DNA of 53,957 nucleotides from Nemertoderma westbladi. Taxonomy: Eukaryota > Animalia > Xenacoelomorpha. The stretch lies in the NCBI GenBank assembly GCA_032718475.1, contig JAUCBJ010005647.1, forward strand, positions 1 to 53,957, written 5' to 3'. Below, piece by piece: positions 14,196 through 53,957 of the stretch. The stretch's first letter is position 1; each line of letters begins with the position of its first letter. The position numbers and the translations under genes are program-made. Below the pieces are notes generated by a model. It was given only the letters and a program-made list of their open reading frames with translations, was not told the DNA's origin and did no database searches.

Positions 14196-14739
14196 TGTTA
14201 GCTTATTCAATCCCGCTAACACCCCATAAAGTTATAAGCCGATAAGCAATATTGGGAGCCACGAGATTGGGTAATTAACCAACTCGTGCCATCCCAATAA
14301 GAATGGGAAGGAGAAGCACACAATGAGGGTCAGGGGCCAAACCCCTAACCCAGAGAGAATAGGTGGAGTGAACGGGAACACTCCAAAGGGCGCCAACAAG
14401 GGTATCAACCAATCAGAGGGGGGAAAGGCATCGATTAGGTAGAGTAACAAGGCCAACCGTGCAATATAGCCACTTGGCAGTAATCATACCAGTTCAGTTA
14501 TCTCAGTGCAATACCGGTGCTAGATTAGGTTACAATAGTTTAGCTAGGGAAGGACCGGGACTTTAGTTACCGTATCCCGCCTTCCGTATACGACAATATA
14601 TCTCATACCTATATCTATATCTATATCTGCATATCATATTATATACGACAAACAGTACAAACTCATTTACTCTTTATACACGGCGGGGACGCGTGAACTA
14701 AAACCGGATAAACCGGGATCCCTCTTGGATCCCGTCACA
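14196..14739 (+). repeat. 5' LTR of family B (544 bp)
   Basis: Identical to the 3' LTR except one substitution seen and a 288-bp insertion in the 3' copy. Confidence 0.95.
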
Positions 14740-14748
14740 GTAACTAAA
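14740..14748 (+). promoter_or_regulatory. Non-tRNA primer-binding-site position, complementary to own LTR (14562-14570)
   Basis: GTAACTAAA is the reverse complement of TTTAGTTAC. Confidence 0.6.
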
Positions 14749-14805
14749 CCAGCTGCCGCCCTAGACAAACTCAGTAACCACCAGCCACCAACCTGCAGAA
14801 GAAAG

Positions 14806-17800
14806 ATGAGTCAGTCGGGAGAAATAACACCGACGCGGACCCCGGACGAAGAACAAACGATCCGCGAGGCCGCGACCAGGCGGTATAGGCCCACGACGCC
14901 GGAGCCATCGATAACGGGCGACCCGGAAGTTCAAGATGAGGGAGACCGTCTGGAGTCAGAAGCCGAGTCGAGAGGAGGGGGAATCGAGTCGGAGGATAGA
15001 GAGAACGGGCTCGAGGGAGAAGGAGACGAGTCGACACGGGGCGAGGGTCGACGCACCGGTGTCGTCGGCCAGCCACAGGCCGAGAGCGACGAACGGCCCA
15101 CCGAGACGATGACAGTGGGGCCGACGGTACGAGGAAGGACCCGGAGAGACGACGGAGGTGTCGATACCGATGTCGCCGGCCAGCCACAGGCCGAGGGCGA
15201 CGGACGGCCCGCCGAAACGGCGACGGTGGGGCCGCCGGTACGACGTCGAACCCGGAGAGACGGATGAGGGGTCGGCGACGAGGACGTCGGGGTTTCTGAG
15301 CGACTTCGACGGGCCTACAACGCGACCCGGAGACTACTAGAGGAGGCCAGAAAGGGGAAAACGATAGACGAGGTAAAACTGAAGTCAGGACTAGGTAAGT
15401 CGGACAGACATTTATACTATCTAATGCATTTCGGGCAGAGAGAATTGGCCGAGGAGAGAGCGAGAAAGGTTGCCGAGGAACTGTATGACTCATGGCGGCA
15501 TGGGGGTATACAACCTAGTGTAGTGTACATAGGGCCATATTTAATCGATGCCCGGGGTATAAAATTAATGGGTTGGAACAGACCTGAAGGGGGCGAATCC
15601 GAGGTTAACCCCGAGGATTCGGCCTCGTCGGTCGGAGGGAGTTCCGGGAGGAGGGGGAAAGCTAGTAGATCGGGAAGGCGGAGGGAGTCCGTCGTAACCG
15701 ATAAGTCTGCTACATCCTCCGCGAAAGAAAGACTGGTGAGAGAGGCAGGTGCCGCGTACCGTCTCGAGCTGATAGAGCAAGGTCAGAGGGAAATGGATAA
15801 ACGGCTAGAGGAGGGGAGAATGCGGCTAGAGAGGGAAGCGGCATTGATTAGAGAAACCGGAGAGAGGGCCGAAAGGGCTTTGAGAGGCCTTAGGGAGTGT
15901 GAGGAAATAGAGGAAAAGGAGTGTAGGGAACGTGAGGCAAGAGAGGAAAGGGAACGCAAAGAGCGCGAGGCGGAACGCAAGGAGCATGAGGCGAGAGAGG
16001 AAAGGGAACGCAAAGAGCGTGAGGCGGAACGCAAGGAGCATGAGGCGAGAAAGGAAAGTGAACGTAAGGAGCGTGAAGCGAGGCGAAGGGAGAGTGCTAG
16101 GAAAGTAGTAGAGTTGGCTGAGCGGGACGCGCGGGAGTGTGAGAGGAGAATGGCAGGAGCCGAGCGAGACCATGAGGAATTAAAGAGACGCCAAAGTGAG
16201 CTTGGGGAACATAGGGTTAGACGCGCGCACGAGCTGCAACTGGTGCGGGCGGGGGCGTCTGAGGGCGGGACTGGCTCGAGTATTCTAGGGGAGCCAGGGG
16301 CCGTGGATACATTTATTAATACCCCACTTGCAGGGACCGCACGACAGACCCAAAACTGGTGTGACCGTACGGGCGGGGGGGGGGGGGGGGTAACAATGAT
16401 AATGATACAGTAGACGTGGTTAATATTAATAGTACCGTATGGGATAATTCTAATCAAACCTTTATTGCAGGGAATACTTTGCCTAGTGGTAGTAATTTAA
16501 ATTTAAATCAGAACAATCTTAATATTAATGTAGAAAATAATCCTAATATTAATGTAGCTACGCAAAATAATCCAAATAATCAAAATAATAATAATTCAAA
16601 TAATTTAATTAATGATCCAAGCCCGAATTTACAAAGTAATTCAGACAGTGTAGTCGTGCAAAGTAATTCAAATGATTTTGTTTCAAACGAACAAATTAAT
16701 TCTGTATCCGATATGGGTGCTATTAACGTAAACACGTCGGGCGTGTACAGCCAGGCAAACGGGGACCTGGCAGGCCACACAGTTGGTGGGCCGGAAGTAG
16801 CTGGGTTAGGTAGACCCAGCGAGGGCCTGGTAGGCCACGCAGTTGGTAGACAGCGAGCAGAGGGCCTGGTAGGCCACGTAGTTGGTAGGCAGGGAGTGGC
16901 TGGGTTGAATAGACCCAGCGAGGGCCTGGTAGGCCACGCAATAGCAGAGGGAGAGGCGGGGGTGAATAGACCCGACCGCGATAGGGTTGATGTGTCGACT
17001 AGAGAGGGATATAGTAGCGTAGTGAGGGATAGCGAAGTTAGATGTGGCGAGTGGGGGGGGGGGGCTACAGGGGCCCCACAACAGCGAGTTCGCGGCGAAA
17101 GGGGGGGGGTGTGCAGAGAGTGTCCCACAGCCGTCAGCGGATAATGCGAGGGCCAAAATAGGTAAACCGCAACAACCGGCGACGGAAAGTAATAGGGGGA
17201 TTGCGAGTATCCCCAGCGGCGTGCGACCGAGCAGAGAGAGACAGGTTGACGTCGTGGGAGGGCGGACGAAGCGTCGAGCCCGATCAGAAGAGGGAAGAAG
17301 AACAGTGGGGTTTAACCGGGAGGTCGACGAGAGATCTCACGAGCGGGAATACTCCACTGAAAGGAGAAGAAGAGAGGATAGTAGTAGAGGTATCGCCGCG
17401 AACGATAGAAGAGCGAGGACGGATAGCGAGCCGTCGGTGGTCGAGATGAGAACAGAGAGTCAGTGGGGTCGGACTCCGGGAGATTGCCGTCGCCCCGGAG
17501 AGATGCGACCCGGCGAGGCGCACTACACGCCGAGAGAGGGGTACGCGATGTACCGGTACGAAGATGAAAACAGTAGAGAGGGGGGTCGAAGAGAAACTTT
17601 CCGACGGAATATACCTACCGATCGAGGATACGGTAGCCGCGGGGGGGACTACTCGAGAAGAATAAACTTCGATCCCGAACAACACATGCAGACTGTAGGA
17701 CATACTGTAGGCCTTACTGCACATACCACAGGCCATACTGAGAGAGGCAATGTAGGCGATAGGATAGCGTGGACAACGGGATTAAACCCGGAAGTCGCGG

Positions 17801-20800
17801 AATACATACCGGCGAGTAGGCCAGAAGCTGATAGGCCTATACCGGTACCAGTACGGCAGTATGACTACAGCATGCAGGGACATAACATATACCCAGGGGA
17901 GGGGGGAATCATTGCGGATTGTTGCATGGGCCCCAACATATTAACATCAACCCCAGTACCAAACATACCAGTGGGGGGGGGGACAGGGTGACATTCCCCC
18001 ATCACAATATCAACAATATACCCCGATAGGAGCAAGAACAACGAGACCCTTGGATGAGAATAGGTCGTGTGATACAGACATATGGAGGGGGCCGCTACCC
18101 CCGATGACATACCCAAGTCAGAGAAAGTCAAGAAATAGGACAGACGGAACGCACCAGACAGGAGAAACTATACAGTACCCATCGAATCCATTGGAAGCAC
18201 AGGCGATGGGGATGGCCACGTTGATCGATGCGTTGAAAACGAGGATCGAGTTACCACCCGTGGAACCATTCAAATTCGATGGGAGCAGGCCGGAAGAATA
18301 TCTACAGTTTCGGCGCATGTATAGTAACGAAATACTAACAAAAAACTTGACGCAGGCGGAGTGCCTAAAGTATCTACAAGTGTACACGGGAGGCCCAGCA
18401 TACGACATAGTGAGGCAATATCAAGGAATAGAGGGCGGCTTCACGACAGCATGGCGGGCACTGGATAGGGAATACGGGCACCCGGCCAAGATCATCAGAC
18501 AGACGTTGAGAGGCATAACATCGGGTGGCCTACAGGATAATCCCGTTAGCATTAAGACATTTGCTAACAAAGTTGAAAAGGCGCTAATCGTGCTGAAGAC
18601 GCTAGACGCGCCATACGAGCTCAACGCGTCCAACAACATCACCACGATAGCGCAGGCACTACCGAGCTGGCTGCGCAACAAGTGGAGGAAAATCGCCTTC
18701 TCCACTCGAGATAAGAAGGGTGCGGAACCGGGTTTAGAAGAAATGTCAAACTTCTTAAACTACGAGGCTGAACTAATAACTGACCCAGTCTATAGCGAAG
18801 ATAGCCTGGGAAAGGGACCTAAGACAGACTACCATAGACCGAAACCAGAGCACAACACATCAAACGCATTACCGAGACTCAGGCAATCATTGCCATATGC
18901 AGCGATGCAGGGGACTGCAAGTCCACAGCTAGCCGAGGATAAGACAACACCATGGAACGGACAGGGAAACAATAACAACACGAATAAACATGACCCCAGT
19001 ACGTCCAGTAGGCTAAATCCAAACAATAAGAATAGTAGGGACTTTGGTACAAACGCAACTGCGATACGCAATGTGCTGTATAAAGAGGGCTACGACCCAA
19101 AGAGCAAATGCCAGCTACACGCAAATGCGCTTCATCAAACCATGAACTGCAGGTACTGGCAGGCGCTACCTAGGCAAGATCAGATAGATTATGCGTTCAG
19201 CAATAAAATCTGCTCGCGATGTGTAATGAGTGGACATAGAGCAAGGGAGTGCAAGGAGAAGCCAATAAAATTTGGTCAAAGGAGAGGCCAAACGATGGCG
19301 ACGAGCACAGTAGGGGCGAAGAAGAGGGGAACGGTGTTACTTGGAGTAGTACCAGTGCGAGTGATCGGGGAAGGCAATCGATCAGTAACAACACTAATGC
19401 TGGTTGATAGTGGAGCTGCCTTCACATTAGTCGAGGAATGGGTGGCCGAAGAGATAGGATTGAGAACGAGGCCAAGCAGGATGGCGGTAACAACCATCTC
19501 TAGCAAAGATGAGATCCTAGAGATGAGAACAGGACGGTGCGCAATTGCAGCAGTGGCACCAGGATGCGACTATGGGGCAACCATCGACCCCATCCAAGTG
19601 ATAGAGTCAATTAATATTAATGCCAGGCGACCAACCAACATCGAGGTCGAGCAGTATAAATTCCTGGACGACATTGACTTCTCAATCCCAGACGTGGACG
19701 TTAGGAAGGTGTCCATCATAGTAGGCATGGACTGCCCAACGGCCCACGAAAGAATGCAAACGGTCTTCGGCGAAGACAAGCAGAGTGACCCGGTGGCCAT
19801 ATTAACACCATTCGGGTGGACGCTGAGTGGTCCAATTAAGAGCAAGATACCATTTAGGATGTCAGAGACATCAGGATGCATGTTCGCGGGAACAATGCAG
19901 GAAATGGGTGACGAGGGAGCAGAGGAGCAGCTTAAAAGACTGCTCAGACAGGATTTCGAGGGACTGAAAGAAACCGGGGTCGGGACCTCGGTGGAAGACA
20001 AGCAGGCTTTACAAAGCGTGGAGGAATCGATGACATGCGATGAGGGGCGGTATACTATAGGAATGGTATGGAAACTACCGAAGATACCGCTGCCCGACAA
20101 TAGGGGGATGGTACTCACGAGACTCCGCAAGCTGAAACAAACACTAAAACGGAGCCCCGAGAAGAATGAGTACATCTACAGGACGATTAAGAAGTACGTC
20201 GAGAAAGGATGGGCCGTGGAGTTACCGGTCGACGAGCCGAACACGGACAGGACATATTACCTGCCACTACACGTGGCTTTAGATCCAAAGAAAGGTAAAC
20301 TACGGATGGTAGTCGACGCATCGGCAAAGACCGACGGAAAATGCTTAAACGACTACCTGTTGGAAGGCCCAAACATATACAATTCGGGCATAGAGGTGTT
20401 ACTTAGATTTAGAAACGGGAAACACGCCTTCACGTGTGACATAGAAGGCATGTTCAACCAAGTCCGTGTAACAGAGGAAGATAGCGACAGTCAACGCTTC
20501 TTATGGTATAACGGCGAGGAAGAACCGTCGATAATACCGGCATATAAGATGGTAGTACAAAACATGGGGGCCAAGTCGTCTTCATTTACGACGACTATGG
20601 CAGTGAGAGACACAGTGAAAGGGAAGGAAGATAGATAGAGCAGTAGGGCCGTCGATATGATTCGACGCGGCTTCTACGTAGACGACGGAATGGAGTCTGG
20701 AAATACGGTTAAGGAGATACTGGACACAGGGCGCGAGGTTCGCGACATCCTAAAAGGATCCGGCTTTAACCTGACCAAATTCCAATCCAGTTCGGAAGAA

Positions 20801-23314
20801 TTTATTAAGGCGATAGAGGACAGGAGACCAGAATCGACCATGGACAATCCCACAACAGCCAAAGGGCAGGACATGGCGATTAAGAGAACAGAATCTCAAC
20901 AGAAGGCATTGGGAATCGTGTGGAACAGGGAGACAGACGAACTGAAGTATCAGCTGAACCAGGAGGGCGCAGACATCCACACGAAGAGGGGCTATGTATC
21001 GTATATAGCAAGGATATACGATCCCCTAGGCCTAGCATCCCCATTATTAGTCACGGGGAAACAGATACTCAAGAGAGTATACAAACTGAAGGATGAGTGG
21101 GACGTAGAGGTACCAGAGGAAATCAAGAAACAGTGGAGCAAGTGGACAGGAGACTTGGAGAAGATGGGAACATACAACTTGCCACGGGTGTATTTCCCGG
21201 ATGGGAACATGACGAATGTGGACCTACACATGTTCTCCGACGCGTCGTTGGAAGCGTACGGAGCGGCACTCTACTTAGTACAACGAGAGGGGGCTCATAA
21301 GCCAAGACTAGCCTTTAGTAAAGCAAAGTCAACGCCACCGGATTCAGCATCAGTTCCTAAGTTAGAACTGACAGCCGCGAGACTAGGGGTAAGAGCCACA
21401 GCCTACCTAGTGGATACTATTCCCAGCATAGTGGAGACACACTACTGGACGGACTCCATGGTAGTGCTTGGTTGGCTACACAACGAAAGAACGAGATACC
21501 CGATATTCGTCGCGAATAGAGTGGACGAAATAAGGGTGAGCACAGAACTGGAAAGGTGGCACTACTGCCCAACGGACGAGAACCCAGCAGACTTGTTGTC
21601 GAGGGGCGTGGTACGCCACACTTTCTTGAAGAAGGAAGTATTGTGGCAACATGGGCCACAATTTCTGAGCGATAAGGAAGCCTGGCCGCCGATGAGGAAG
21701 GTGGACCCGGGCTCGGAAGTAGTATCAGAAGGAGAAGAGGGAGATTCAGAGGGAGAAGAGATATACTCCCAGATGGTGAGGGAGATTAGGGACGTGCAAC
21801 CAGGACGGGAACTGTGCGATAACCCGACGGATAAACTCCTCAGCTACAGTTCTAGTTGGTATAAGACCATGAAACTAGTGGCGTACTGGAGAGCCTTCGG
21901 GAATTTCCTTGCGGGAGTTGGCAAGGACAAGAAGATCAGGACAACCATAGATCTGGAAGGAGCGGCCAAGGCAGTGATCCGCTATGAACAACGGAAGAAC
22001 TACGGCGACGAGGTGGAACGCGTCGGTAACTAACAGCACCTCCGACGGGACAGCGAGCTGATTACGCTGTCGCCACAACTCAATGACGACGGGATTCTAG
22101 TAATGAATTCTAGGGTGGGATACAACAACAGCATAGTCGTACCACCGAAACCTATCATCATTCCTACAGGATCGCCAATAGTCCACCAGATTATATGGGA
22201 CTCCCACAAATCGATATTGCATGGGGGCACCAACCGAACCCTCACAGAGATAAGGAGGACCTATTGGGTCAAACAATTAAGGAAGAAGGTTAAAGCGGTA
22301 GTGGGGCAGTGCCAGACCTGCCGACGAGCGAAGAAGGAGCGAGCCGTACAGGAGATGGCGCCACTACCGGCGAGTAGGGTAAGACAGCACGACCCGCCAT
22401 TTACGCATTGCGGTGTGGACATGTTCGGGCCGATAAAGATCAAAGTGATGCGACACACGGAGAAACGCTACGGCATTATCTTCGTATGCAATAACACACG
22501 GGCGGTAGGGATAGAACTCGCCCAAGATGCAACCGCATCAGCATTCATTAATGCCCTAGAAAGATTTAGAGACCGCAAAGGTGGGACGATCGCAGTGATA
22601 TACAGCGACAACGGCACCAACTTTGTGGGCGCAGAGAGTGAGATGGCAGAGGCCTTGGACATCTTGGAGGGAGAAGAAGTCAGGGCAGCCATGAGACGAC
22701 GACAAGTAAAGTGGGAGAGAAGGACGCCGTATGCACCACATACACTAGGATGCGTCGAGAGACTGGTGGGCAGTTCAAAGCGTCTAATGACGAAGCTAAT
22801 GAACACCCACATGGTCACTGAGGACGTCTTACGGACAGTACTTGCGAAGTGCGAGGGGATCATTAATAGCAGACTGCTATATCCGGAGAATGATGACCCT
22901 GAGTCATTAGACGTGCTGACACCTAGCCATTTCCTGATGGAAAGGCCAGCGACCATCGATATGCGGCGTGTAGACCCAGATGACATACACTCCCGCCAAA
23001 GTTGGAAAGTCGCTAAAGCAATAAGCGCAGAGTATTGGAGGAGGTGGGTCGAGGAATACCTACCCACACTCCATAAACGAAGCAAGTGGAGGAAGTCAAA
23101 CAGGGAGTTAAGAGAGGGATATCTCGTAATCGTTACGGATGATACTATCATCAACAACCAATGGCGGTTGGCGAGAGTAGTAGGCACCTACTCCGACGAG
23201 GACGGAAGAGTCCGATCGGTAGAAGTACGGATAGGTGGAAAGATAGGTGCGAAGGACAGAAAAACCTACAGGAGAGCTGTAGGCAAATTCTGTCTGTTAG
23301 AAGGGGCACCTTAG
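14806..23314 (+). pseudogene. gag-pol: BEL/Pao gag-pol polyprotein with frameshifts and nonsense codons
   Basis: Gag knuckle CSRCVMSGHRAREC; protease LVDSGA; RT YYLPLH, RMVVDAS, DIEGMFNQV, YVDD; RNase H FSDAS, LEL, WTDS, NPAD; integrase H-H-CC, GVDMFGP, SDNGTNF, ERLVG, WRRWVEEYL. In-frame stops at 20636-20638 and 22031-22033, and several gag frameshifts at poly-G runs. Confidence 0.95.
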
Positions 23315-23435
23315 TGGAGTTAGAGAAAAGTTTAGTCGTCCAAGTTTTGGACTGAGGGGGGTGGGATTGAGGGCGAGACGTCCTTCCCACAAACAAAAAA
23401 AAAAAAAAAATAATAATAAAATAAAATAATAGTAC

Positions 23436-24310
23436 ATGGTAGGTACGCAGTTAGTAGGCAGAAGTTAGTTAAGAGGTACGTAGTACCTAGTTAGTTAGTT
23501 AGTTAGAAGGTACGTAGTACCGATAGTTAGTTAGAGAGTTAGAGGGTACGTAAGTACCGCTAGTTAGTTAGAGTTAGAAGGTACGTAGTACCTAGTTAGT
23601 TAGTTAGTTAGAAGGTACGTAGTACCGATAGTTAGTTAGAGAGTTAGAGGGTACGTAAGTACCGCTAGTTAGTTAGAGAGTTAGAGGGTACGTAAGTACC
23701 GCTAGTTAGTTAGAGAGTTAGAGGGTACGTAAGTACCGCTAGTTAGTTAGAGAGTTAGAGGGTACGTAAGTACCGTTAGTTAGTTAGTTAGAGAGTTAGA
23801 GGGTACGTAAGTACCGCTAGTTAGTTAGAGTTAGGAGGTACGTAGTACCTAGTTAGTTAGTTAGTTAGAAGGTACGTAGTACCGATAGTTAGTTAGAGAG
23901 TTAGAGGGTACGTAGTACCGATAGTTAGTTAGTTAGTTAGAAGGTACGTAGTACCTAGTTAGTTAGAGAGTTAGAGGGTACGTAAGTACCGCTAGTTAGT
24001 TAGAGAGTTAGAGGGTACGTAGTACCGCTAGTTAGTTAGAGTTAGAAGGTACGTAGTACCGATAGTTAGTCAGAGAGTTAGAGGGTACGTAGTACCGATA
24101 GTTAGTTAGAGAGTTAGAGGGTACGTAGTACCGATAGTTAGTTAGAGAGTTAGAGGGTACGTAAGTACCACTAGTTAGTTAGAGAGTTAGAGGGTACGTA
24201 AGTACCGCTAGTTAGTTAGAGAGTTAGAGGGTATGTAGTACCGTTAGTTAGAGAGAAAGTAAGAGTCAGAGGGTACGTAGTACCGTTAGTTAGAAGAGAG
24301 AGAGTAAGAG
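23436..24310 (+). repeat. ~30-bp tandem array between pol and the extra ORF
   Basis: Unit approximately GTTAGTTAGAGAGTTAGAGGGTACGT(A)AGTACCGCTA, roughly 25 copies. Confidence 0.92.
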
Positions 24311-24784
24311 GTAAAAGGGGATATAGATATAGATATTAGTTAGCAGTTAGTAGAGAGAGGGGGGCATATGAGTACAGCTGGGTAAGTCGTGTGGCCACAC
24401 GACGCATACTGCTGTACTGCATAGGCCAGAATACAGAGTAGGCCAGAATGTGGATTAGAGAATAGAATAATCCATAGGCAGTAGTAAGTAGTAGGACAGT
24501 AGAATCAAATTAAATAAATAAATAAATAGAATAGGGCTGAAAGTTACAAAATAGTGGCAACACAAGGGAAGTTATTCTAGAACATAATAAAAGTAACGGA
24601 CAGAAATTGTAAATTACGCTCATTTACTAGCTTCAAAATTAATTAGTGATAATTTAGGTTAAAAGGCGCAGTTAAGTAGGAAGTAGGCCATTATCGAACC
24701 GTACAGAACATCCTAGATACATCACTCATCTGTATTGCGCCTTGGTAAGGCACCACCTTGCAGGTGAGCGAGTGAACGTTCGGA

Positions 24785-27335
24785 ATGGCGAGTAAGTTGA
24801 TCAGAAATAGAAAAGCGGAGTCAGGAGGAAAGGAGATACTGGTGGATTTCACCGAGAGGCATCCGGAAGAGAAGACGAGAGGATACTACGAGAGGTTGGA
24901 AAGGGGTCACGCGGCGCGAGCACTGCAAGATCACTTCAGGGAGATGCACGAACAGCGGCTGGTCGGGACCTACGGGACGCCGTCGCTGGACAACGCGATC
25001 TTCCAACACTTCCACTACGTGGTGAGAGGGGACGAGGCGAAGTTCGGGATTCCGAAGTACCCGAGGGAATCACCGAGGAAGGGCTGGAAGAGATTCATAG
25101 AGTCCGTCAACAGAGGAGGATATATGATCCTAGACGACGAGGGAACCGTGGAAGACGAGGCGGGTTCGAGACGAGGAACGGCGGGGTCGGCCAGGACCAT
25201 ACTCCTACATTTGGCCACGCCAAATGGGGACATCTTCTTATTCGACCTAGGGACGTATGGGAAGAAGGACAGGCCGAAATTAAACCGGTTACCGAAAGTG
25301 GTACAAGTCTTAGTAAGAGAGAAGTCGACGACGAAAGTGGGATCGGCGATTCGCGAGGACGCGGAGAGGATCATCAGTCCGGACGCCACCAACCTCCTGG
25401 ATATGCAGAAAGTCTTTATGGCTATGACGGCACCGGATGGGTTGGGGGTAGTCGAAAACACAGGCCAAAGCGGGGCAGTGGCGATGGGCCAATCATTGGG
25501 GCTCGTATGCCACAAACCGATGGACTGGGGGAAGTTTAGGGAAGAATACGGAGCAGAACTAGCGAACTCGCTAAAGTGGGGAGCGAGACCGGGAAGGCAG
25601 GAGGTATATCAGTTCCGAAGGGGAGCGATAAAGGTATATCAGAAGCGATATATCCTGCAGGAGGACTGGATGATGATAAGTTTGCTTAACTTATTCATGA
25701 CCGTGGTTATCGAGAGGGAACCAGGGGCATTTCTGTTATCGGGATCACCCCTAAGCTACAGGAGAGCCTTTAAGACGGCCTTTGACGATCTGGTAGACCA
25801 CCCGGGGCTGAAGGGCGAGTCGGTGTACTACAACAGCCGACATCTGGTAGACGGGGAGACAGATACACCGTATCAGAGATGGGAGCAGCTAGAGACGGAT
25901 AGACGAGAAGCAAAGCGACTGGAAGAAGTCGCTAGACGGGAGAGGATAGAAGCAGAGGAGAGGGAAGAGGAGGCAGGGACACAGAGTTACGGCTTCAAGG
26001 AACAGGCAGGCCTAGACGAACTTCATTGGACTTCATCAGGGAGTTCGGAGGAGTCTCTAGGGCGAGAATTGGGATGGACGGTGGGATCGCCGAAACAGTC
26101 GACGTCGGGGTTGCAAACAATGCCCATACCAGCGGGCGCCGAGGGCGACCAACCGCCAAGGAAGTTAAGGGAGCTAGAAGGATGGAGAGCTACGGGCGAG
26201 AGCCAAGGCGGGAAGGGACATAGTGGATCCATCGGGATACCGGGGTTGGAGACACTACCAGAAGAGGAGGACGACGACGATGAGTTCGGAGAGATGCCGC
26301 CCATCGAGAGGATAGGCCACTCGGACATGGACTGGGTTGGCGGAAGGGTGGTGACTGCCAGTGGGGCAAGGGCCTTCTGGAACAGATCCGGCAAGCGGAC
26401 CTGGGTGCACGAGGAGTGTGGCGATGGATTTCGCGGGGAGCACCATCAGGTTGGGCGAGCAACCGGGGACGACACCACGGATAGTATTCGGGGAGACGAT
26501 GCCCGAGAGGGGCGGAGAGATCGACGTAGATAGAGAGACCAACGTAGAGAAGTTCGCCTACCAGCTACTCCACAGACCGCGGAGATCGCTTGGGACGAAA
26601 GACGAGGTGGGACGGGAGACATTGGTACTCGGCTGCGACTACTGTGGGAGACAGACCCATCGGGAAAGCAGCTGCCTATACCGGTTCCAAAAAGGAACCT
26701 TTTGTCTCTACTGCAGAGAACCAAGCCACAGGATGGGGGCGTGTCCACGGTTGCATAACCGATGTCCAAAGTGCCACTTTCGGGGACACTACGGACGCGA
26801 GTGCGACTGGATGAACGACGAGGAGAAGTTCACAAGATTCGAGGAGTGGGCCGACGTCGGGGCCATGACGCGCCAGCGCATGAAGGCCCAGGAGTTCAAG
26901 TGGGGTTTCTTCCTTATCAATCAGGAGACTCACATGGAAATCATAAAGCGGAGGCTGCCGTTTACCTACCAAGAGGTAGCAACGGCGGCGTCGTACGCTG
27001 GAGTGATGAACACGCAAAGATATTTGGACAGGTGGACGCCAGAGAACCGAAGGGAGTTTAGGGATTTCTTGGCGGAGCACGTACCAAAGGCAATGAAAAT
27101 GATCCTATGGGACGCCACCAGAGGGAGACAACCGGGCCACTCTGAGGGGCCACCGGCGAAGCGATATCGGGCACTAATAACACCAGCGCCCAAGGAGCCA
27201 ACGACCGGGATCAGCAAGGAAGTAGCGGCGAAGGTCCGAAAGCAGAAAGCGGATGATGCCAGAGGAACGGTGATAACCAAGAAACGGCCCAGGGAACAGG
27301 ACGCCAGGGGGAACTATCCCCAGAGGAACAGATAG
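24785..27335 (+). CDS. Extra 3' ORF of family B: DEDDy-like 3'-5' exonuclease + triple CCHC knuckle (two overlapping frames, probably one frameshifted gene)
   Basis: ExoI MILDDEG, LLHLATPNGDIFLFDL, LPKVVQVLV..KVGSAIRED (ExoII), LLDMQ and QKRYILQE (ExoIII-like). Then CDYCGRQTHRESSC, CLYCREPSHRMGAC and CPKCHFRGHYGREC. Confidence 0.78.
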
Positions 27336-28050
27336 GTTCCCAGAGTCGAGGGATAGAGACTGAGACTTGGACGTGGTGCGCCTGGAAGGCGCCGCGTGGG
27401 ACGTACGAACTATTAAGTACAAGTTTAATTAATGCAAATAATCATATAAGTGCAATTTGTATGTACGTATGTAGTAATTAGTAATCTACGAATATATACG
27501 CTGGGAGTAAGTACTATAGTCATACAACCTTTCTCAATTAGCTACTGGGACTGGGGGACAACTGACTATGGCACTATGGACGAGACACCAGACGATTTCA
27601 CACTTCTTGAGTGCGACGGCACAAGAGGGGGGGGGGGGGGATTCGTCAGAAGGGATGAGGTAGTCAGAGTAGGGTTGAGGGACAGAGTAGTTAGTGCGAA
27701 GTGTGGAGAGAGTGCGGACGCAATTCTAGTGTGGGGGGGGGGAGAATAAGAGGCTGAGTGAGGGACGAGGAGGTCCGAGTGTATGAGAGAGTTAGGATGA
27801 GAGTGAAGAAGAGATAGGGCGGAAGTGTTGGGGAAACAAAAGTTGTGTGAGAGGTGAGCGTGATCGGCCCGACATGAGACGCCAGGCACACAGGGTAGCG
27901 TTATCATACCCATAGGGAGCGGCCTGGAAAGCCGGCTCCGAGAGAAAAGAATTCCACCCCACACCCGATACTAGATCGGGATCCAGCGGGATTGTAGCGC
28001 ACTTTTTGGTTGATGCTATCTTCTTACCGGGAAGATAGCATGGGGGGGAG

Positions 28051-28882
28051 TGTTAGCTTATTCAATCCCGCTAACACCCCATAAAGTTATAAGCCGATAA
28101 GCAATATTGGGAGCCACGAGATTGGGTAATAAACCAACTCGTGCCATCCCAATAAGAATGGGAAGGAGAAGCACACAATGAGGGTCAGGGGCCAAACCCC
28201 TAACCCAGAGAGAATAGGTGGAGTGAACGGGAACACTCCAAAGGGCGCCAACAAGGGTATCAACCAATCAGAGGGGGGAAAGGCATCGATTAGGTAGAGT
28301 AACAAGGCCAACCGTGCAATATAGCCACTTGGCAGTAATCATACCAGTTCAGTTATCTCAGTGCAATACCGGTGCTAGATTAGGTTACAATAGTTTAGCT
28401 AGGGAAGGACCGGGACTTTAGTTACCGTATCCCGCCTTCCGTATACGACAATATATCTCATACCTATATCTATATCTATATCTGCATATCATATAGGTTT
28501 AAATGAGTTAGAATGGGCTATATTCCGGTTTAAATAGTTAAAAAATTCAAAATTTACATGGCAATATAATTATGATCATTAAACATATTAATATTAACAT
28601 ATTAAACTATATTAAACTTTATTATTTTTAAACCAGACGTTCTGAAGATTTTGAAATGCATTAACGTTTTTAATATCTGGTTTACTTATTTATTTGTTTT
28701 TAATTACTTTTAATAATTTAATGTTTAATGATCATAATTATATTGCCATGTAAATTTTGAATTTTTTAACTGCATATCATATTATATACGACAAACAGTA
28801 CAAACTCATTTACTCTTTATACACGGCGGGGACGCGTGAACTAAAACCGGATAAACCGGGATCCCTCTTGGATCCCGTCACA
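28051..28882 (+). repeat. 3' LTR of family B, with secondary insertion 28495-28769
   Basis: Matches the 5' LTR. The insertion is flanked by a 13-bp duplication CTGCATATCATAT. Confidence 0.95.
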
Positions 28883-30209: not shown

Positions 30210-30362
30210 TTCTGACCTACTTAAAGATTGCCCTGCCGATTCTGACCCACTTAAAGATTGCCCTGCCGATTCTGACCCAGTAAAAGATTGCCCTGCCGAT
30301 TCTGACCCAGTAAAAGATTGCCCTGCCGATTCTGACCTACTTAAAGATTGCCCCGTCGATTC
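30210..30362 (+). repeat. 30-bp coding repeat (DSDPxKDCPA x5) in the YR C-terminus
   Basis: Direct inspection. Confidence 0.88.
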
Positions 30363-31015: not shown

Positions 31016-33274
31016 TTAAATTAATTCAGGCCGGAAAGGGTTAATAGGGTTTACTATAGGAGTTTCTACTTCACTAGCAGTATAGATGCGTTTAGGCTCC
31101 ACACCTTGCGCATGAAATACTTCAGACCTAACTGGCTGACACATTGTTACAGAGGGTGGTGGTATACTCATATGTATATTTACTAATTTATCGAGTTCGA
31201 GAGCGATATGCTGCTGTACTTCTTGCAGCTCTAATTTACTCTCTCTTACTGTTCCATTTAACAGTTGAACAGTCCCTTCCAATTCTCGGACTGGAATTTA
31301 TTCTCCTCCAATTGCCCGAGCAATTCCTCCATCCCCCGTCGTCCTTCCTCCATCCACTGGACCGCGGATGCAGGAGTCGCCAACAGCGTAGCTGGATGGT
31401 ACATAGGGACGACAGGGGACAGTCCGGTTATTATCTCTTGCTCAGTGTCAATGACAGTCTGAGATTCTGGCAGTTGTCTACTGCAGATAGGTATTTTGGT
31501 ACTGTGTAAAGGGAATTTTGAGTTGGGTTCTGGGAGCAAAGGGGTCTCTATTGAAGGAGTGTCTTTGCTAACAGGCCTAATTAATTCTGGCTCATCTACT
31601 ATAGTAGGGAGTCTTTCTACTCTTATAATTTGGGCTGTTGACTCCTTATTACTTAAGTCTACATTAGCTAGTTCCCTTCTCACCGTAGGGGGTAAGTTAG
31701 GCAACTTATGTCTGTGGGGCGCTCTTCTACGTCCGTTTGAACGAGCTTGGTTACCTTTATACTCGGAATCAGTAGTAGTACCTTCATCTGAGGAGGTAAA
31801 TCCATATCTTCTGGGAGTAGATCGACTCAGTAGTTGCATCTGAGTAGCTGTCCTTTGTTTATTTAAGTAATCTTGTCTCGCCTGAATGCTCTCTAATTCT
31901 AGCTGTGCCTTTGCTTCAGCTGCCTTTCTATCAGCTTCTGCCGCTGCTGCCTTTCTATCAACTTCTGCCGCTGCTGCCTTTCTATCAACTTCTGCCGCTG
32001 CAGCCTTTCTATCAACTTCTGCCGCTGCTGCCTTTCTATCGACTTCTGCCGCTGCTGCCTTTCTATCAACTTCTGCCGCTGCAGCCTTTAATTCAGCTTC
32101 CATGGTTGCAGCTCGTTTCCGGTCTTCTATCTGTCCTTTCTTTATTTGTTCTCTTTTGTCCATCTCGATGAGAATGCTTTCATCAAATTTAGCCTGCTCC
32201 GCAGCTAATGTCTCCGCATCTAGGGAGTCGAAAATGAATTTGGCTTCTTCACTATTGGGGTGAAGTCCAGCTAGACGTCTCCTTAGCTCTTTGTCACCTA
32301 TAAATCGTTGATAATCCGACAGATAGATGTCAATAGCATCCATCTTCTGAGGTTTTTCGGATACTGCCTCACCTTCCACATGGGAGAAAGTTGCATCGGT
32401 TGATTCTCCTCAGGCTATGCGTTCAGCTAGTTGAGCCTTCCATTGTGTTGTTCCCTGGACTTTAGCATTCACTCGTTCGAACCAAGTCTTTACTGCCACC
32501 TGCAGCGATGTGTCTTGACTTCTCTTCGAGGCCTCTTCAAAGGCTGAAAGGATTAATCTGATCCTCAATATACGTTCTCTCACTTGGTAAAGCAGTTCTC
32601 CCTGCTCTTGAGGTCCCTGTTGTTGTTGAAATAACTGTGCTTCTACTCGTCCCAAGGAGTTGAAGAATCCCTGGACATATCCTGCTGCTGACCTCTTCCA
32701 TACAGCGGGATCTCGGGTGTCCCTAACTACTCCCATTTGATATAAGTCTTCCCAGGCAGCTTCCGATAAGTTAACCAGAGTCTGTGTCCAGGGAAGTTCC
32801 ATTGAGTCTCTACAATAGACCTTAGTTCTTCCAATGTGTATCCAGCGTAACTGTCCCTGGTCGATCTCTTATTTCTCATCTAATCCGCTTGATGTTCTTC
32901 TATAGCTATAAGTACTCTAGTGAGCACTGCCCCAAGAAGAACTAAAAGTGGGTCAGGGTAAACCGCTTCTTCCATCCTTGATCCAATTACTTTTTATCCA
33001 GTTAGTTACTACGTAGTTGAGAAATAACTTCTCGGTTCGGGTACTGTTGCTGTTTTACAGCCGTCGCTTGGTCTCGCTTAACTTGAGCCCTAGTGCCTAT
33101 AATAGACCTATGGTGCTTCACTAGCCTAGGGTCCGACACGACTACTGTAGGGATGACCTTTCTTACAGTAGGAGGGGACTTAGACTTTGGTCGGGGCCTT
33201 TCTATACTTTGATCTGGGTCACAGATTGTCCTTTCCAAGAGACTATCTGACAGGGTTTGTTTTGTGTCAGACAT
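31016..33274 (-). pseudogene. Disrupted gag-like ORF1 of A' (includes 27-bp AAAAEVDRK repeats at ~31920-32090)
   Basis: ORFs 33002-33274, 32410-32802, 31258-32379 and 31016-31282. The first three align with the intact ORF at 52745; the last lies beyond the part of that ORF inside the window. Confidence 0.75.
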
Positions 33275-35577
33275 AATTTATTTTACAGTTGAATGCCTAT
33301 CACGATAATAACAGTTAAAGTAAGTCTAGGGGAAATCAGTATCAACTGTCAGTCTCGTAGTTACTGATATTGCTACTCAATGTAACGTGGTATATATCTA
33401 GTATTAGAATACCGGTATACACCTATAGTATATATAACAGTATTATTACAGACTATGATCAGTCACAGAATACCGGTATATAAGTTTAGCCTAATTTATA
33501 TAAATATATAATAAGCTTACTTTAAACACTGGTAATGTCAATAATGTAATAATAACTGATTATCCAAATTTTAGGAATTATTTCCCTTTACTTTATGACT
33601 GATATTAAGCAGTAGGTTCAACTGATATTAAGACCTAATTGATGTATAACAGGCCTATTAATTTATAAATCTGATTGAGTTAATTTATAAATATATATAC
33701 CCGTAATGGGTTTTGTCAATATTTGAAATAAATGTTATTATTTCTACACAGAGGCTGGACACTCTCAGTGGAGTGATACTTGTTAGACACTAAATACTGA
33801 TAATTCTACCTAACTAAGTTACTTATCACTACAAATTACTTACGTATCGGGTTGAGATTACACAATCTCTAAATAAACAATGAACAAGTTACACGTACAA
33901 TTTTTAGGGTAATTTAACAAGAAATTTACGAACCAGACTAACAAGGAGTTAGAATTTCTGGTTCTTACAGACTGACAGGAATTACGGTATTTTGAAACCA
34001 ATAAAGTAGTATTCAGTACGTTGTGTTGTCCAGATAAGGAAATGCCAACGTCTGACGGCTTATAGTCTACACACTAAGCACTACGTACCCGGAGTGTCCT
34101 ATACCTAGAGATTAATTATCAAAGCCAACTATAGCTAACGGACCTATTAACCACATTACAACACAAATATACTGCCTACGCACTAAATTACTTTCAGGAA
34201 AGCACTGTACTCTAAACCCTAAATTAGGTACTAGCACTTATACTACGTATAACTTGCAGTTAAATATACATGAACAGCCAAAAGAACCACGGTATCTGCT
34301 GGAGTGATCGGAGCACTAAATCACCAGTCTGTCCTACGCCAAGCAGTCCTGAAGTAGTACCAGGGTTAATTTAACTATAACAGTATGCATAACAAGCATA
34401 ATTACTGTAAGGGATAAACTTGGGGACATGAAGGTTGCAATTACTTGCATAAACTCTGAATAATAAATATTACGCTACCCGTACAGACTATTCAAACAAA
34501 ACACAGACCAAATGCTGGCAGACTACTGTCAAGCCTAAATAAACCACAGTATATGCAATCTCCGAAATGGTTAGTTAGTAAGCGTTCTAGACTACGTAGT
34601 ACGACTTATTCCTTCGTGGAGGGTTTACCTTATAGCACTGGATGCCTCCACTTTCCTAACTAGCACTTTATCGGACAGACACTCTATATACACTGCAATC
34701 GCCTCAGACCTAACAACAATCAGACAACAATCCGGCCTACAAGTTATTTATATAATCTGAGCAGGCTTACACGCCTTCTGCTCAATATTACACTTACAGA
34801 TAAATAAGCCAACAGAAATAAGTAAAATCCTAATAAAACCAGGGCTGCAGTCCCTGATTAAATATTAAGACCTACCGGTATATAATTATCGCAATCGAAT
34901 TAATACTGCTGTAAGTACCGGTTCGGGTCAGGCCTACAGTTTACCGTCCGACCAGTACGTTTTGGGTTTATTGCCTACTGGGCAATAAAAGAAACAAAAT
35001 CTATTAATGTTTGCGCTTTTAGACCTTTTAGCAGTTAACCTGCCAAGTTAAATGTGCCTTTACTTATAAATCGACTTTTGCCCTTACCAATTACCTGGTC
35101 TACTGAATTTACATCCACCGAAGCCAGTCCATGCGCGGCGTATGACCCACTATATGGGAGACTGGATTCGGGTCCAGAGAAAGTTATTATGGTGTAGGCT
35201 ACTTTGTATTATTCATTTGATCGCTACTATATAATCTCCAACAACTATATTTACTTTCGGGGAAATATTACCAGTTCCTTTAGGACGTGGCGCTTTAAGT
35301 ATAAAACAGAGTTATGACTTACACTAATCACAACTAGATGGCTACATAGCGCATTCTTTAGGAGATGCTTTATTAACCTTCACATGACTTCACACTACTT
35401 CACACTAATTTGCTGACCATCACTGACTTTTATCATATATAAGGAGGATTGCAACTGACACACGAAGGTATTATGAAATAGCATTTAATCCACACAAAAA
35501 CCACTATAATTTGAGTTGCAGTTGCTACCGGTAGACCCTTCTGCTTACCTGAGTAATTAAGAAAGTTGAGGGGTTAA

Positions 35578-37111
35578 CCCTATTAAACCCGGGGGAGGGT
35601 CAATATGACCCCCCCCCCGTGGTTTTTTTATTATAATTCTGAAACAAACGCAGTTGGGAATCTGAAATTTTTTGACTTTTCCTAAAAATCTAATGTCTTT
35701 CAAGTAGTGAAAACCGTTTTCAAAAATATTGGGTACTTTTCGAGTTATAGCACCATTTTTTAACCCTACTTTTGGCACTTTTTTTGAGACGTTTTTTGAA
35801 AATTACATTTCATTAAATATGAATTGTAACATCTCTATTTTTGATTTACACCGGTTTTTTGGTGTTAGAAATTTGATGGAATTCATATAAATTGATTTAG
35901 AAATTTCAAACTTGTTTTTTTCGGTGGGTGCCAAATTTTGGTGCCAACACCAAATTTTGAAATAAGTCAATTTTGTAAATTGATCATTTGAAACTTGTTT
36001 TTTACGCAATTGGGTTTTTGGGTTTCTGGATTCGATGAAATATATACGAGTTGCACCAAACGTATCAAACTTGTATTTTTCGGTGCTGTGTGCAAATTTT
36101 GGTGCTAGCACGAAAATTTGAAAATCCAATCAATAGATAAAATTGCTTGTGACAATTTATTTCTTGCGTTTTAGAGGTTTATAGCTGTTCTGAATTCAAT
36201 GGAAAATATAATTATCGAACTAGACATCTCAAACTTGTATTTTTCGGATGCGGGTGCAAAATGTGGTGCTAGCACCAAATTTTGAAAACCATCAAATATA
36301 TCAATTGATTGTGTCACCTTGTTTCTTGCGTTATACGGGTTTGTGATGATTCTAAATTCAATGGAATCAGTAAAAATTTCATAAGAGTTCTCAAACTTGT
36401 ATTTTTCGCCGGTGGGTGAAAATTGTTGTGCCAGCACCAAATTTTGGAAAATATGCAAATTGATAAGTAGATAGTATCACCTTGTATCTTGCGTTATACG
36501 GGTTTATGAGGGTCCTGAATCCGATGGAATCAATAAAAACAGCACTGGACATCGCAAACTTGTACTTTTTGGTGATGGGTACGAAATTTGGTGCTAGCAC
36601 CAAAATTTGCCAAATTACGCCGAAAAATACAAGTAGCAATGATCTGGCATATTAGAAATGTATTCCATTAGAATCAGCGCCCTCGAAAACCTGAAAATGT
36701 GAATTTATAGCATCGTATAAGTGAATTAAAAATTTTGTGTTCTAACTGAAAAGTGCTGGTTACTTGTTTTTTTCATTTTTTTCCTACGCAGAGAGGACTA
36801 AACAGCCATTTATAGTAATCATATCATTTTTTAACATTTTCCAATGTATTTTGCACCCCTGAAAACCGAAAATGTAACTTTCAAATTTGGTGAAAATTGT
36901 GCACTACTTGGAATTTTGGTGCTGCAATATAACCACCCCAGTACATTTTTTCGAAAAATTTTTTTTTCGGTCGGATCCAGACAAGTGATACCTTCGTACA
37001 AACAAAAAATCGGACGTTTTCGTAAATATTTGTAGATTTTAGAGGGGGGGGTCAATATGACCCCCCCCCCCCGGTATTTGTACAACATTTTATAGCCCGG
37101 TACTAATAGGG
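35578..37111. mobile_element. Non-autonomous TTAA-specific (piggyBac-type) element inserted in LTR A'
   Basis: TTAA TSD (35574-35577 / 37112-37115), termini CCCTATTA...TAATAGGG and subterminal GGGTCAATATGACCC palindromes. Removing it restores the LTR. Confidence 0.85.
35860..36620. repeat. Five diverged ~160-bp repeats, each with an AAATTT-GGTGCTAGCACC-AAATTT-type palindrome
   Basis: CAAACTTGT anchors near 35908, 36066, 36230, 36392 and 36555. Confidence 0.75.
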
Positions 37112-37628
37112 TTAATGATTATTTATCGGTATTCTCCAAATATAACATCCATTAATATAAACAGCAATTAACAACAATATAAAACAGCATTAAAACAGTG
37201 CGGTGAACAGAGTCAGTATATGTTCGTGAAATATGTTATGAGTTATGATGTGGTGTTCGTATGCAACATAAAACAGGGTAATAGATTTACGTTCTTATAT
37301 CTCCAGCCATCAGATGTTCTTGGGCCAAAGTCTGAAACATCTGTACTTAGTACTGAATCCAGAAAGGAATTGGATTCTCAGAAAAACTATAACTGCACAT
37401 GCGCCAATTTCCACAGGTAGGTCTCTATTGGTATAACTGGGAAGATTGCTCTGATTGGCTGAATAGGCCCAAACAAAGAAACCTCCACGTACACAAATAA
37501 TCAGCTGACAGATTTCGTCATCTTGGTTCTAATTTCTGACCGATGCATAGTTGAACAATTTTAGGCCTTTTTAGAGTATTCAGCACATTGCATAAAAATG
37601 ACTTGTTATGTCCGCAAAACCTTTTACA

Positions 37629-41320: not shown

Positions 41321-41455
41321 TTGATTCTGATTTGTAAATTGTAAATTAACGTTTAAACAAACCTAATTATGGGAATATTTTTATATAATTTATTTTCATT
41401 TTTATTATATTTATTCGTATTGCAGTGCGATTGTATATATAATATAAATTCTAAC

Positions 41456-49358: not shown

Positions 49359-50563
49359 TGTAAAAGCTTTTGTGGGATAACTGATACGTTTGCCTTTGCT
49401 GGCCAGTTCCCCCCCCGGTCGCTAGAATACTCTCAAAGGGATTTATAACTAAAATAGTGCAAGCTACCAGCTTATTGGCTGATGTGCTGTGTGGAGATAT
49501 CTGGGCTCAGTTTAATCGGCCAACCAGTGTAGGGAGGTTGCCTAAGCCTTGCTGTCCGTGTCGGCCAATAGAATTTGCGTAGGCGTTGATTTCGACCTAT
49601 CCCAGCGCTACTGAACTGAATTTCCTATCTCACTGCTCATCCTCTGTGTTGGACGGGAGCTTCGGGGAATAAGAGTTTTTGGTATACTCGTATAGTAGTA
49701 GTAGTCATATGATTTTATATGATTCTGTTGTTGTGTTCCCATTTTCGCCATAACACCGGCTTTTTGGGAAGAACTCTAGTAAAACTGCTTAAATTATCGA
49801 AAGTATAAACTGTTACCTAACTAACCTAACGCAATCGACTTATCTGATCTAATTAACTCACTATTAATCATATTGTTTGTACTGTTATTTACCATCAGTT
49901 ATTAATTGTACCTATTTGTTAATGGAAATATTGCTCTTTGGATAATACGGATAAATCACCCAAATTTCCCAATTTTCTTGATACACTACAGGTTAGAGAG
50001 ACAGGCTATACATAACAATTGCGATTTATATTAATGTGGTGTGTATTGAATCTAATGTTATTTAGCAGACCCTACATGAGTCAATTGCTGCTCTCTTTAT
50101 GTGTGATCAAATATACTGACGGTCGGCAGAATAGTGTGTATGATTGTGATTGGTAACAAAGTATTTCCTAAAGAATACGCTTTATACTTTAATCATAAGC
50201 GGTATCGTTGCGTTTTAGTATAAGTCTTAGTTCTGTTTAAATAGATAGAGCGCCACGTCCTAAAGGAACTGTTAATATTTCCCGAAAGCCAATAATATCT
50301 GTCAGAAATTAATTATTAGCGATCTGTCGAATAATACAGTAAGTTTACGCTGCAACCTTACACTGCAATAATAAAATTTAAGCATCCGAATTCAGCCTCC
50401 CGGGTGTAGATCCATCGGGTGAATGATCGCGCATGGGCTGACTTCGGCTAATGTTTTGTGTATTAGCATAAATTGTTTTCGTATGCTAAAGGTGTTTTAA
50501 TTAACTAAAAGACATATAAATTTTGGCAGGTTAAACTGCTAAAGGTCTTCAAAAGCGCGAACA
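49359..50563 (+). mobile_element. 5' LTR of a second family-A element (element runs off the window end)
   Basis: Direct repeat of 3047-4256, followed by a ~2.2-kb leader and a long ORF. Confidence 0.88.
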
Positions 50564-50576
50564 GTAACAGTTTATA
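50564..50576 (+). promoter_or_regulatory. Non-tRNA primer-binding-site position, complementary to own LTR (49804-49816)
   Basis: GTAACAGTTTATA is the reverse complement of TATAAACTGTTAC. Confidence 0.7.
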
Positions 50577-52744: not shown

Positions 52745-53957
52745 ATGTCTGACACTCAGCAAAACCTGTCAGACAGTCTGATCGATACAACTATCTGTGA
52801 TTCAGATAGGAGTGTGGAGCGAATAAGAAAGGAGTTCGGCTCACCTCCTACTGTAAAAAAGGTCATCCCTCCAGTAGTATCAGACCCTAGGCTAGTCCAC
52901 CATAGGTCCATCATAGGCACTCGGGCACAGGTAAAACGGGACCAAATGGCAGTTGTCCTATCGCAGCAACATCTTGGTCAAGAACCTACTTCCCAGCGAC
53001 CCGATAGCTCCAGCAGTTCGGATACTGTAGAGCTGACTCCCGAACATGGAGTGCAGATGGCTGATACAGTCTACTCGGACCCCCTTCTTACTCTTCCTGC
53101 TGCAGTGCTAACTACTATATTCATTGCGGTGGAGGAACATCAAGCCGACTGGGCGAAGAATAAGCGAGCGACCCAAGATAATTACGCAGGATACGCCAGG
53201 GAAGAATTGATATCTATTGTTGAATCACAATGGAACTTTCCCGGACTCGGACTTCCGTTGGATCTGTCCGAGGCTACTTGGGAAGATATACACAGGATGG
53301 GAGTGGCTAAAGATACAATGGATCCAGCTGTTTGGAAGAGGTCGGCAGCAGGATATGTGCAGGGATTCTTCGGATCTTTGGATCGATTGGAAGAACAACT
53401 GTTTCGACAACCTCACGGACCTCAAGAGCAGGAAGAGCTGCTATATCAAATACGCGAAAGAACCCTACGCATACGACTAATCCTCTCAGCCTTTGAGGAA
53501 ACTTCCAAAAGAAGACAGGACACGTCGCTGCAGGTTGCTGTCAAAACTTGGCTACATCGGGTAGATCTCAAAGTACAGGAAACGGCCCGGTGGAAATCCC
53601 AGCTGGCTGAGAGATCAACTTATGAAGAACCAACTGATGTCACCCTTTCTCAAGCGGAAAGCGAAGAGGCCGCCGAGAAACCGCGAACTAGAGACGCTAT
53701 CGACATTTATTTGTCCGACTATCAGCGATTCCTAGGAGACGAAGAGTTGAGGAGACGGCTGTCTGGACTTTCCCCTAATAGTGAAGGAACCAAGCTTGTA
53801 TTGGACTCAATCGATGCCGAAATGTTAGCTGCAAACCAAGCTGAATGTGATGAAAAACTCCGTCTCACTAGAGTCCGAGAAGAACAAATAAAGAAAAGAA
53901 GGATAGAGGAACAAAAGGCGGCGGCTATGGCAGATGCAGAAGCAGAAAGAAAAGCAG
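52745..53957 (+). CDS. gag-like ORF1 of family A, open to the window end (absent from the supplied ORF track)
   Basis: Manual translation MSDTQQNLSDSLIDTTICD...AAAMADAEAERKA has no stop over ~400 codons and is homologous to the A' ORFs. The gag identity comes from position only. Confidence 0.75.
   Translation, partial: MSDTQQNLSDSLIDTTICDSDRSVERIRKEFGSPPTVKKVIPPVVSDPRLVHHRSIIGTRAQVKRDQMAVVLSQQHLGQEPTSQRPDSSSSSDTVELTPEHGVQMADTVYSDPLLTLPAAVLTTIFIAVEEHQADWAKNKRATQDNYAGYAREELISIVESQWNFPGLGLPLDLSEATWEDIHRMGVAKDTMDPAVWKRSAAGYVQGFFGSLDRLEEQLFRQPHGPQEQEELLYQIRERTLRIRLILSAFEETSKRRQDTSLQVAVKTWLHRVDLKVQETARWKSQLAERSTYEEPTDVTLSQAESEEAAEKPRTRDAIDIYLSDYQRFLGDEELRRRLSGLSPNSEGTKLVLDSIDAEMLAANQAECDEKLRLTRVREEQIKKRRIEEQKAAAMADAEAERKA

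Follow-up and report, generated by a model that had tools for sequence, protein, structure and literature searches.

Complementarity between primer site and long terminal repeat in two related retrotransposon families of Nemertoderma westbladi, a candidate case of self-primed reverse transcription

How does a retrotransposon begin reverse transcription when no transfer RNA (tRNA)-type primer site follows its 5' long terminal repeat (LTR)? The question is raised by a stretch of 53,957 nucleotides of Nemertoderma westbladi (contig JAUCBJ010005647.1 of assembly GCA_032718475.1; hereafter the window), a eukaryotic, retroelement-rich sequence in which an LTR retrotransposon family, family A, is present as a 5' LTR, leader, and gag-like open reading frame (ORF), together with a separate 3' LTR. 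A second element on the minus strand, A', represents a sister family by a damaged copy, truncated near 31047; its leader and broken gag-like ORF are 68-77% alike to those of A at the DNA level, and for neither does the window hold pol or a copy that retains both of its ends. By analogy with Tf1, we hold with moderate confidence that A and A' prime reverse transcription with their own RNA. This reading is drawn from the missing TGG site, the family-specific complementarity of 13 and 10 base pairs (bp), and a primer site that abuts the LTR end.

Pairing of the primer site with its own LTR

No tRNA-type TGG site was found after the 5' LTRs: the first TGG occurs at +58 in A and +54 in A', and none lies within 60 nt in BEL1, a full-length BEL/Pao element of the same window. 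Nor were any tRNA genes found in the window. Directly after the LTR of family A, 50564-50576 is complementary to 49816-49804 over 13 bp, starting from the first base. For A', the first-pass annotation, made from the sequence letters without database searches, had given the minus strand at 35007-34997 as TTAATAGATTT, directly after the LTR end ...GCGCAAACA (35008), and 37288-37278 as AAATCTATTAC; these letters were confirmed, as were the 10 bp of complementarity that it reported, which join 35006-34997 to 37288-37279. At an offset of one base, the A' 10-mer has a single complement across the entire LTR, at 37288. The pairings of A and A' are family-specific: each site reaches at most 6-7 bp in the LTR of the other family, with duplex energies of -15.7 and -11.0 kcal/mol within families versus -4.3 and -5.2 kcal/mol across them.

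The probability of an A' match of this quality by chance was 0.010 under a Markov model (20,000 Markov LTRs, offsets 0-5, whole LTR), 0.006 when offsets were limited to 0-1 over the whole LTR, and 0.001 within the 186-nt interval holding the motif. Empirically, 92 of 6791 window positions matched as well, and the overall range across search spaces was 0.001-0.014; the corresponding range for the 13-bp match of family A was 0.001-0.003. A published screen for self-primers, which asks for at least 10 bp at 0-5 nt from the LTR (PMC6317226), is passed by A with 13 bp and A' with 10 bp, and BEL1 fails it with 9 bp. Because the A' pairing is unlikely to arise by chance and is family-specific, it is most likely used.

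Approximately 760 nt of LTR separate motif and primer site in family A, whose leader spans 2.2 kb. The distance of 2.3 kb in A' includes a 1534-bp insertion, without which the spacing is close to that of A. The downstream side of the primer site folds as a local hairpin, and a hairpin of 8-9 bp right after the site is kept in both A and A'. In the A leader, 50859-51436 contains a duplication of approximately 290 nt (87%), which is single in A'.

The mismatched first base and the paired changes

The A' helix is interrupted at the base next to the LTR, which the first-pass annotation had ascribed to decay of this copy, predicting that a consensus of A' would show a pairing base at position 1. 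Of seven sequencing runs considered, six contain the stretch, and four were compared. Our comparison of A' 34965-35065 with sister copies drew on 93 and 78 contigs from two studies (the other two of the four sequencing runs gave 1 and 0); the contigs are short, differences near their ends are unlisted, and the first run is possibly the source of the window itself. No alternative letter at 35007 appeared at a 3% threshold, at summed depths of approximately 17,000 and 11,000. The predicted base was thus not seen among the sister copies, and decay of the first leader base is ruled out by the contigs of both studies; either pairing in the A' family starts at base 2, or the change in this copy lies in its LTR. 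The sole substitution listed lies at 34996; its alternative letter, which accounts in the two studies for 12% and 23% of depth and comes from 11 and 9 contigs, would extend the A' helix to 11 bp.

Read in register, pairs 5, 8, and 11 differ on both sides between the families, pairs 2-11 are all Watson-Crick in both, and breaks of the A' helix are confined to positions 1, 12, and 13; an alternative reading with one gap gives one paired substitution and one paired insertion. The register is fixed on the leader side by the LTR end. For the LTR side, the description of the two motifs as positionally equivalent could not be confirmed, as MAFFT leaves a 65-nt gap and places the A' motif elsewhere. 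The two motifs share one interval that aligns poorly, with a CCAAT block on one side and a conserved downstream block on the other. Global alignments matched them in none of 16 cases (8 settings, 2 LTRs), putting the motif of A 15-40 nt further downstream or in a gap. In local searches, the best match of the A block 49756-49817 was A' 37334-37277, in register, under all four settings (p 0.18-0.27), the 19-nt motif alone was likewise matched best in register under all four (p 0.03-0.05), and the block without the motif found its best match elsewhere in four of four. Homology of the motifs, on which the earlier claim had been made to depend, is therefore no more than plausible: all eight local tests containing the motif put it in register, and none of the global alignments does.

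The same annotation had taken the covariation as a sign of selected pairing rather than chance. The argument against chance held up, given the probabilities above and the family specificity, and the part concerning selection is weakened by the use of two sequences only, whose LTR-side homology is not established by alignment; the covariation may be called suggestive. In Tf1, the primer is copied into the primer-site DNA, and about half of the complementary DNA (cDNA) keeps the copied site as single-stranded DNA (PMC11042837). Since such copying occurs, paired changes need not mean independent selection: by analogy, a single altered LTR motif could act as template for the primer site and so produce covariation from the mechanism itself. 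Templated copying would still amount to self-priming, but R-scape-type counts would score one event as two. We rejected the interpretation of the covariation as two independently selected changes per pair.

Probable self-priming and competing explanations

Under self-priming as described for Tf1, the bases after the 5' LTR would find their partner in the LTR motif and not in a tRNA. The motif would lie at or close to the RNA's 5' end and fold onto the primer site; ribonuclease H of the element would then cut at the 3' side of the motif, and the resulting fragment would prime minus-strand DNA. The motif of the daughter copy would derive from the 3' LTR and its primer site would be re-copied from the primer, which would keep the two in step and set the joint of strand transfer directly behind the motif. 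The A' pairing would start one base past the LTR end.

Several features of family A are consistent with this sequence of events. Of eight folds begun at 49770-49807, seven had the A helix in the minimum-energy structure, and of four begun at 49740 or 49600 none did, a dependence on the fold start that fits a motif at the RNA 5' end. Contig depth of A copies in the largest run, a rough measure, was 55-167 thousand across 49414-49755, reached 380 thousand for the bin with the motif, and ranged over 356-1702 thousand beyond 49870; low depth upstream and high depth downstream of the motif correspond to the split between variable and conserved sequence expected near a U3/R border. The two A LTRs differ at no position within the 76 nt ending with the motif (49742-49817), and 14 of their 61 differences fall in the 35 nt after it, a cluster that might mark a strand-transfer joint. 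No substitution in the motif or primer site was seen among 40 listed of 249 rows of A copies, which by itself proves nothing. In A' as it stands, all 10 pairs were kept in two folds begun at the motif. The layout recurs in BEL1 with 9 bp, a length reached by none of 29 outside BEL/Pao LTR pairs.

A number of observations weigh against self-priming. The A' site is mismatched at the LTR-adjacent base, a state common to its sister copies, and Tf1 is said to need perfect complementarity (PMC5445492). Global alignment fails to match the LTR motifs, and for the 13-mer a second site in A', 37518 (-9.1), rivals the motif (-8.1) in energy. Folds begun at the motif favor the helix by construction. The extra U5 arm predicted for A (50343-51 with 50554-62) is missing its partner in A', so that no three-helix structure like that of Tf1 can be made out. 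The BEL1 motif is situated 67 nt past the start predicted for that element, and only one fold in ten joins it to the primer site. Furthermore, the first letters of the A motif are TATAAA, and in A' a TATAAG stands 10 nt ahead of the motif; if these words are TATA boxes, the motif would lie upstream of the RNA start.

This last point leads to the most substantial of the alternatives, in itself unlikely, that the pairing is real and the motif belongs to the TATA region of U3, reaching the RNA only through the 3' LTR, where it would join the RNA ends or supply a primer from the 3' end. In addition to the two TATA-like words, the search for a TATA-plus-initiator pair 30 nt upstream of either motif found none. 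The words nevertheless stand at differing distances from the motif in A and A' and are possibly a by-product of an AT-rich helix, and including more upstream sequence in the fold abolishes the pairing. A somewhat smaller chance may be given to the possibility that the A' match is accidental, or a new, non-homologous site, so that only A truly pairs and no covariation exists. The AT-rich A' 10-mer with its mismatched first base, the block p values, and the global and MAFFT alignments all speak for it; the probabilities of 0.001-0.014, the in-register matches in every motif-bearing local test, and the fact that the sole common variant (34996) lengthens the helix speak against it, and even a non-homologous A' site that pairs would still argue for use. 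The suggestion that some host RNA, such as a fragment of a tRNA, acts as primer, the LTR match being a structure that masks or regulates the site, draws on the half-tRNA primers of Copia lineages, which leave no TGG (PMC6317226). We regard it as improbable, as the sites of A, A', and BEL1 all differ and each fits its own LTR, so that three RNAs would be needed and the matches would remain unexplained.

The conserved hairpin right after the site could itself be the working part, with the LTR pairing an accessory, as may be envisaged from the fungal GalEa elements, which keep a hairpin in the absence of a tRNA site (PMC5445492). This proposal is quite improbable, given that such a hairpin offers no free 3' end beside the LTR, is lacking in BEL1, and leaves the LTR match unexplained. 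Most improbable of those considered is a primer made by splicing inside the LTR. An AG directly precedes the A motif and one junction adds 3 bp, for a total of 16, but the donor is weak, there is no pyrimidine tract, and the best junctions yield 10 bp in A' and 8 bp in BEL1 versus 10 and 9 bp unspliced. As no junction improves A' or BEL1, the splice-junction primer was set aside as unsupported.

Self-priming thus remains our preferred reading, and its known instances resemble A and A' in part. It defines the Tf1/sushi group (bioRxiv 2022.12.06.519325; PMC4600332; PMC5341516), and Tf1 and Tf2 of Schizosaccharomyces pombe, Tj1, and the Tf1/sushi Ty3/gypsy chromoviruses share with A and A' the lack of a tRNA site and post-LTR bases complementary to a stretch inside the LTR (PMC4600332; bioRxiv 2022.12.06.519325). 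The Tf1 site begins with ATAAC (PMC11042837) and those of A and BEL1 with GTAAC. Unlike Tf1, A and A' do not conserve two flanking 'pretzel' helices between them, A' is mismatched at base 1, and family A has its 760-nt spacing, long leader, and extra 3' ORF. On sequence grounds A and A' probably function as Tf1 does; membership of the Tf1/sushi group is not claimed, no link to the chromoviruses can be drawn in a window without pol of A or A', and BEL/Pao membership is a possibility. In plants, the Tcn1 (Gypsy) and TAR (Copia) lineages have predicted self-primers (PMC6317226), for which the evidence, as for A and A', comes from sequence, and A and A' satisfy the screen applied to them; in contrast, the host here is an animal, no sequence relation to them was shown, and BEL1 falls one base short of the screen. 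The GalEa Copia elements of fungi share the missing tRNA site and a conserved hairpin just after the LTR and differ from A and A' in having no LTR complement (PMC5445492).

BEL1, superfamily placement, and the remainder of the window

Judged by its proteins, BEL1 is a young, complete BEL/Pao element. It encodes, in order, DUF1759, protease, Peptidase_A17, integrase, and DUF5641 domains, and PF05380 and PF03564 were present in 20 of 20 matches. The probability of its 9-bp complement by chance was 0.005 at offset 0 and 0.017 at offsets 0-5, and the case for self-priming is weaker in BEL1 than in family A. The BEL1 motif folds into a hairpin of the LTR. Looser matches to the primer site occur in the initiator region 14492-14501 (-5.6 versus -10.2 kcal/mol for 14562-70) and at 14519-35, which gives three partial pairing sites about 35 nt apart. 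The predicted promoter layout, with core words taken from consensus sequences, is repeated in two related LTRs at 10339 (minus) and 39204 (plus); both have a TATA-like word at about -31 and TCAGTT, and TTAC closes at position +14 of each predicted RNA, which is where a 14-nt self-primer would end. The primer sites of the BEL1-related LTRs BEL2 and BEL3 lie outside the window. After pol, BEL1 carries a 37-nt tandem array and an extra ORF at 24776-27335 with three zinc knuckles; an exonuclease-like look by eye was not confirmed. The structural model of the extra ORF was unusable (pLDDT 34.7). The BEL1 reverse transcriptase had no match among viral contigs.

The outside control was built from the best 80 of 533 BEL/Pao loci, among which direct repeats were found for 30 and 29 LTR pairs were kept, after one locus (L062) and two single rows were excluded as non-LTR repeats and split rows were merged in three loci. 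A TGG lay within 12 nt in 24 of the 29 pairs and a self-complement longer than 8 bp in none, although the pairs represent far fewer than 29 independent families, with 17 having one common site and many coming from one assembly; they are 27-38% identical to BEL1. According to the profile of the International Committee on Taxonomy of Viruses, BEL/Pao elements (Belpaoviridae) use tRNA priming at an 18-nt site for tRNA-Arg or tRNA-Gly and have genomes of 4.2-10 kb (PMC8742986). That site is absent in A and A', and BEL1 departs from the profile in both its missing TGG and its length of 14.7 kb. BEL/Pao elements are known only from animals (PMC3601003).

Family A and BEL1 both have their site directly at the LTR end, an LTR motif whose last letters are TTACC, and an extra 3' ORF. 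The two extra ORFs are alike at E 6e-7 (27% over 73 amino acids; score 84 versus a best of 54 in 500 shuffles), a likeness that may reflect shared zinc knuckles only. The coding parts of A in the window (first-ORF start and extra 3' ORF) matched neither Pfam nor a profile of 20 BEL/Pao polyproteins. Homologue searches with the A gag-like protein, Pfam included, were empty, and its single-sequence model (pLDDT 57.5) best matched generic three-helix bundles at Z of at most 13.4, which is uninformative. The homologue search with the A extra ORF was likewise empty, its Atlas matches to zinc-knuckle clusters all being below 0.9, and a conserved 22-24-mer of the LTR had no match among viral and metagenome contigs. 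Placing A and A' in the BEL/Pao superfamily is accordingly a guess that could fall either way. The wider proposal, that A, A', and BEL1 form one lineage of large BEL/Pao elements in which self-priming replaced tRNA priming (a third origin after Gypsy and Copia), primer and site being kept in step by copying and the primer tolerating a one-base offset (A') or a place inside R and not at the cap (BEL1), is possible but, taken as a whole, doubtful.

The features discussed are collected in Table 1. We take the insertion in the A' LTR to be piggyBac-like from its TTAA flanks and inverted repeat; it carries a 163-nt internal repeat, and a second TTAA-bounded insertion lies near 31047. BEL1 was inserted beside inverted arrays of a 32-nt unit (12686-14021) and just upstream of an ORF with one stop (28900-30681) that had no Pfam, PHROG, or PDB match; by eye, its motifs give it a tyrosine-recombinase-like look. 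Elsewhere, the window contains a LINE-type element with endonuclease and reverse transcriptase (39962-43824), a repeat region in which a 41-nt unit occurs 50 times (97% match) ahead of a 21-nt array (45325-48262), and possible host exons with a weak PAN-domain match (4706-6262; E 0.013).

Table 1. Positions of the retroelement features in the window
Feature	Position	Strand	Remarks
Family A 5' LTR	49359..50563	+	1205 bp, TGT...ACA; 94.5% alike to 3047-4256
Family A 3' LTR, different copy	3047..4256	+	Preceded by a short purine run; motif at 3491-3503
Family A LTR motif	49804..49816	+	13 bp complementary to the post-LTR site; opens with TATAAA (6 letters)
Family A hypervariable stretch	49818..49852	+	Follows the motif directly; holds 14 of the 61 changes that separate the two A LTRs
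Family A primer-site position	50564..50576	+	Abuts the LTR with zero gap; TGG absent from the next 57 nt
Family A gag-like ORF	52745..53957	+	404 amino acids, still open at the window end; labeled by position
Extra ORF(s) upstream of the A 3' LTR	826..2968	+	Zinc-knuckle-like motifs; weak likeness to the BEL1 extra ORF
BEL1, full-length BEL/Pao element	14196..28882	+	14.7 kb; 5-bp target duplication; LTRs 99.8% alike; 272-bp insert in the 3' LTR
BEL1 primer-site position	14740..14748	+	First 60 nt free of TGG; complementary over 9 bp to LTR 14562-14570
BEL1 predicted core promoter	14465..14501	+	Initiator-like TCAGTT (A at 14496), preceded at about 31 nt by a TATA-like word
A' 5' LTR, first part	37112..37628	-	Begins TGTAAAAG as in family A; 51% identity to A over 511 aligned columns
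A' LTR motif	37278..37288	-	37288-37279 pairs with the post-LTR site; 37278 opposite the mismatched first base
Insertion in the A' LTR	35578..37111		1534 bp, TTAA-flanked; terminal inverted repeat of 8 bp, perfect
A' 5' LTR, second part	35008..35573	-	Ends ...GCGCAAACA; with the leader, 68% identity over 849 columns
A' primer-site position	34997..35007	-	TGG absent; bases 2-11 pair with the LTR motif
A' leader hairpin	34967..34989	-	9 bp, just past the primer site; matching A hairpin at 50579-50599
A' gag-like ORF	31258..33274	-	Stops and frameshifts; 60-70% identical to that of A

Self-priming itself is already known in Gypsy and Copia, and searches of the open literature in PubMed Central and bioRxiv, PMC5445492, PMC5443660, and PMC6934838 included, found no report of it for BEL/Pao. 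The pair of A and A' is by itself thin evidence, and its value lies in the exact RNA ends that it names. If the reading is true, a high-copy animal family whose LTR and primer site pair in a family-specific way, together with a young BEL/Pao element of matching layout, would indicate that tRNA priming can be dropped repeatedly, and self-priming elements of this kind would escape annotation tools based on tRNA sites.

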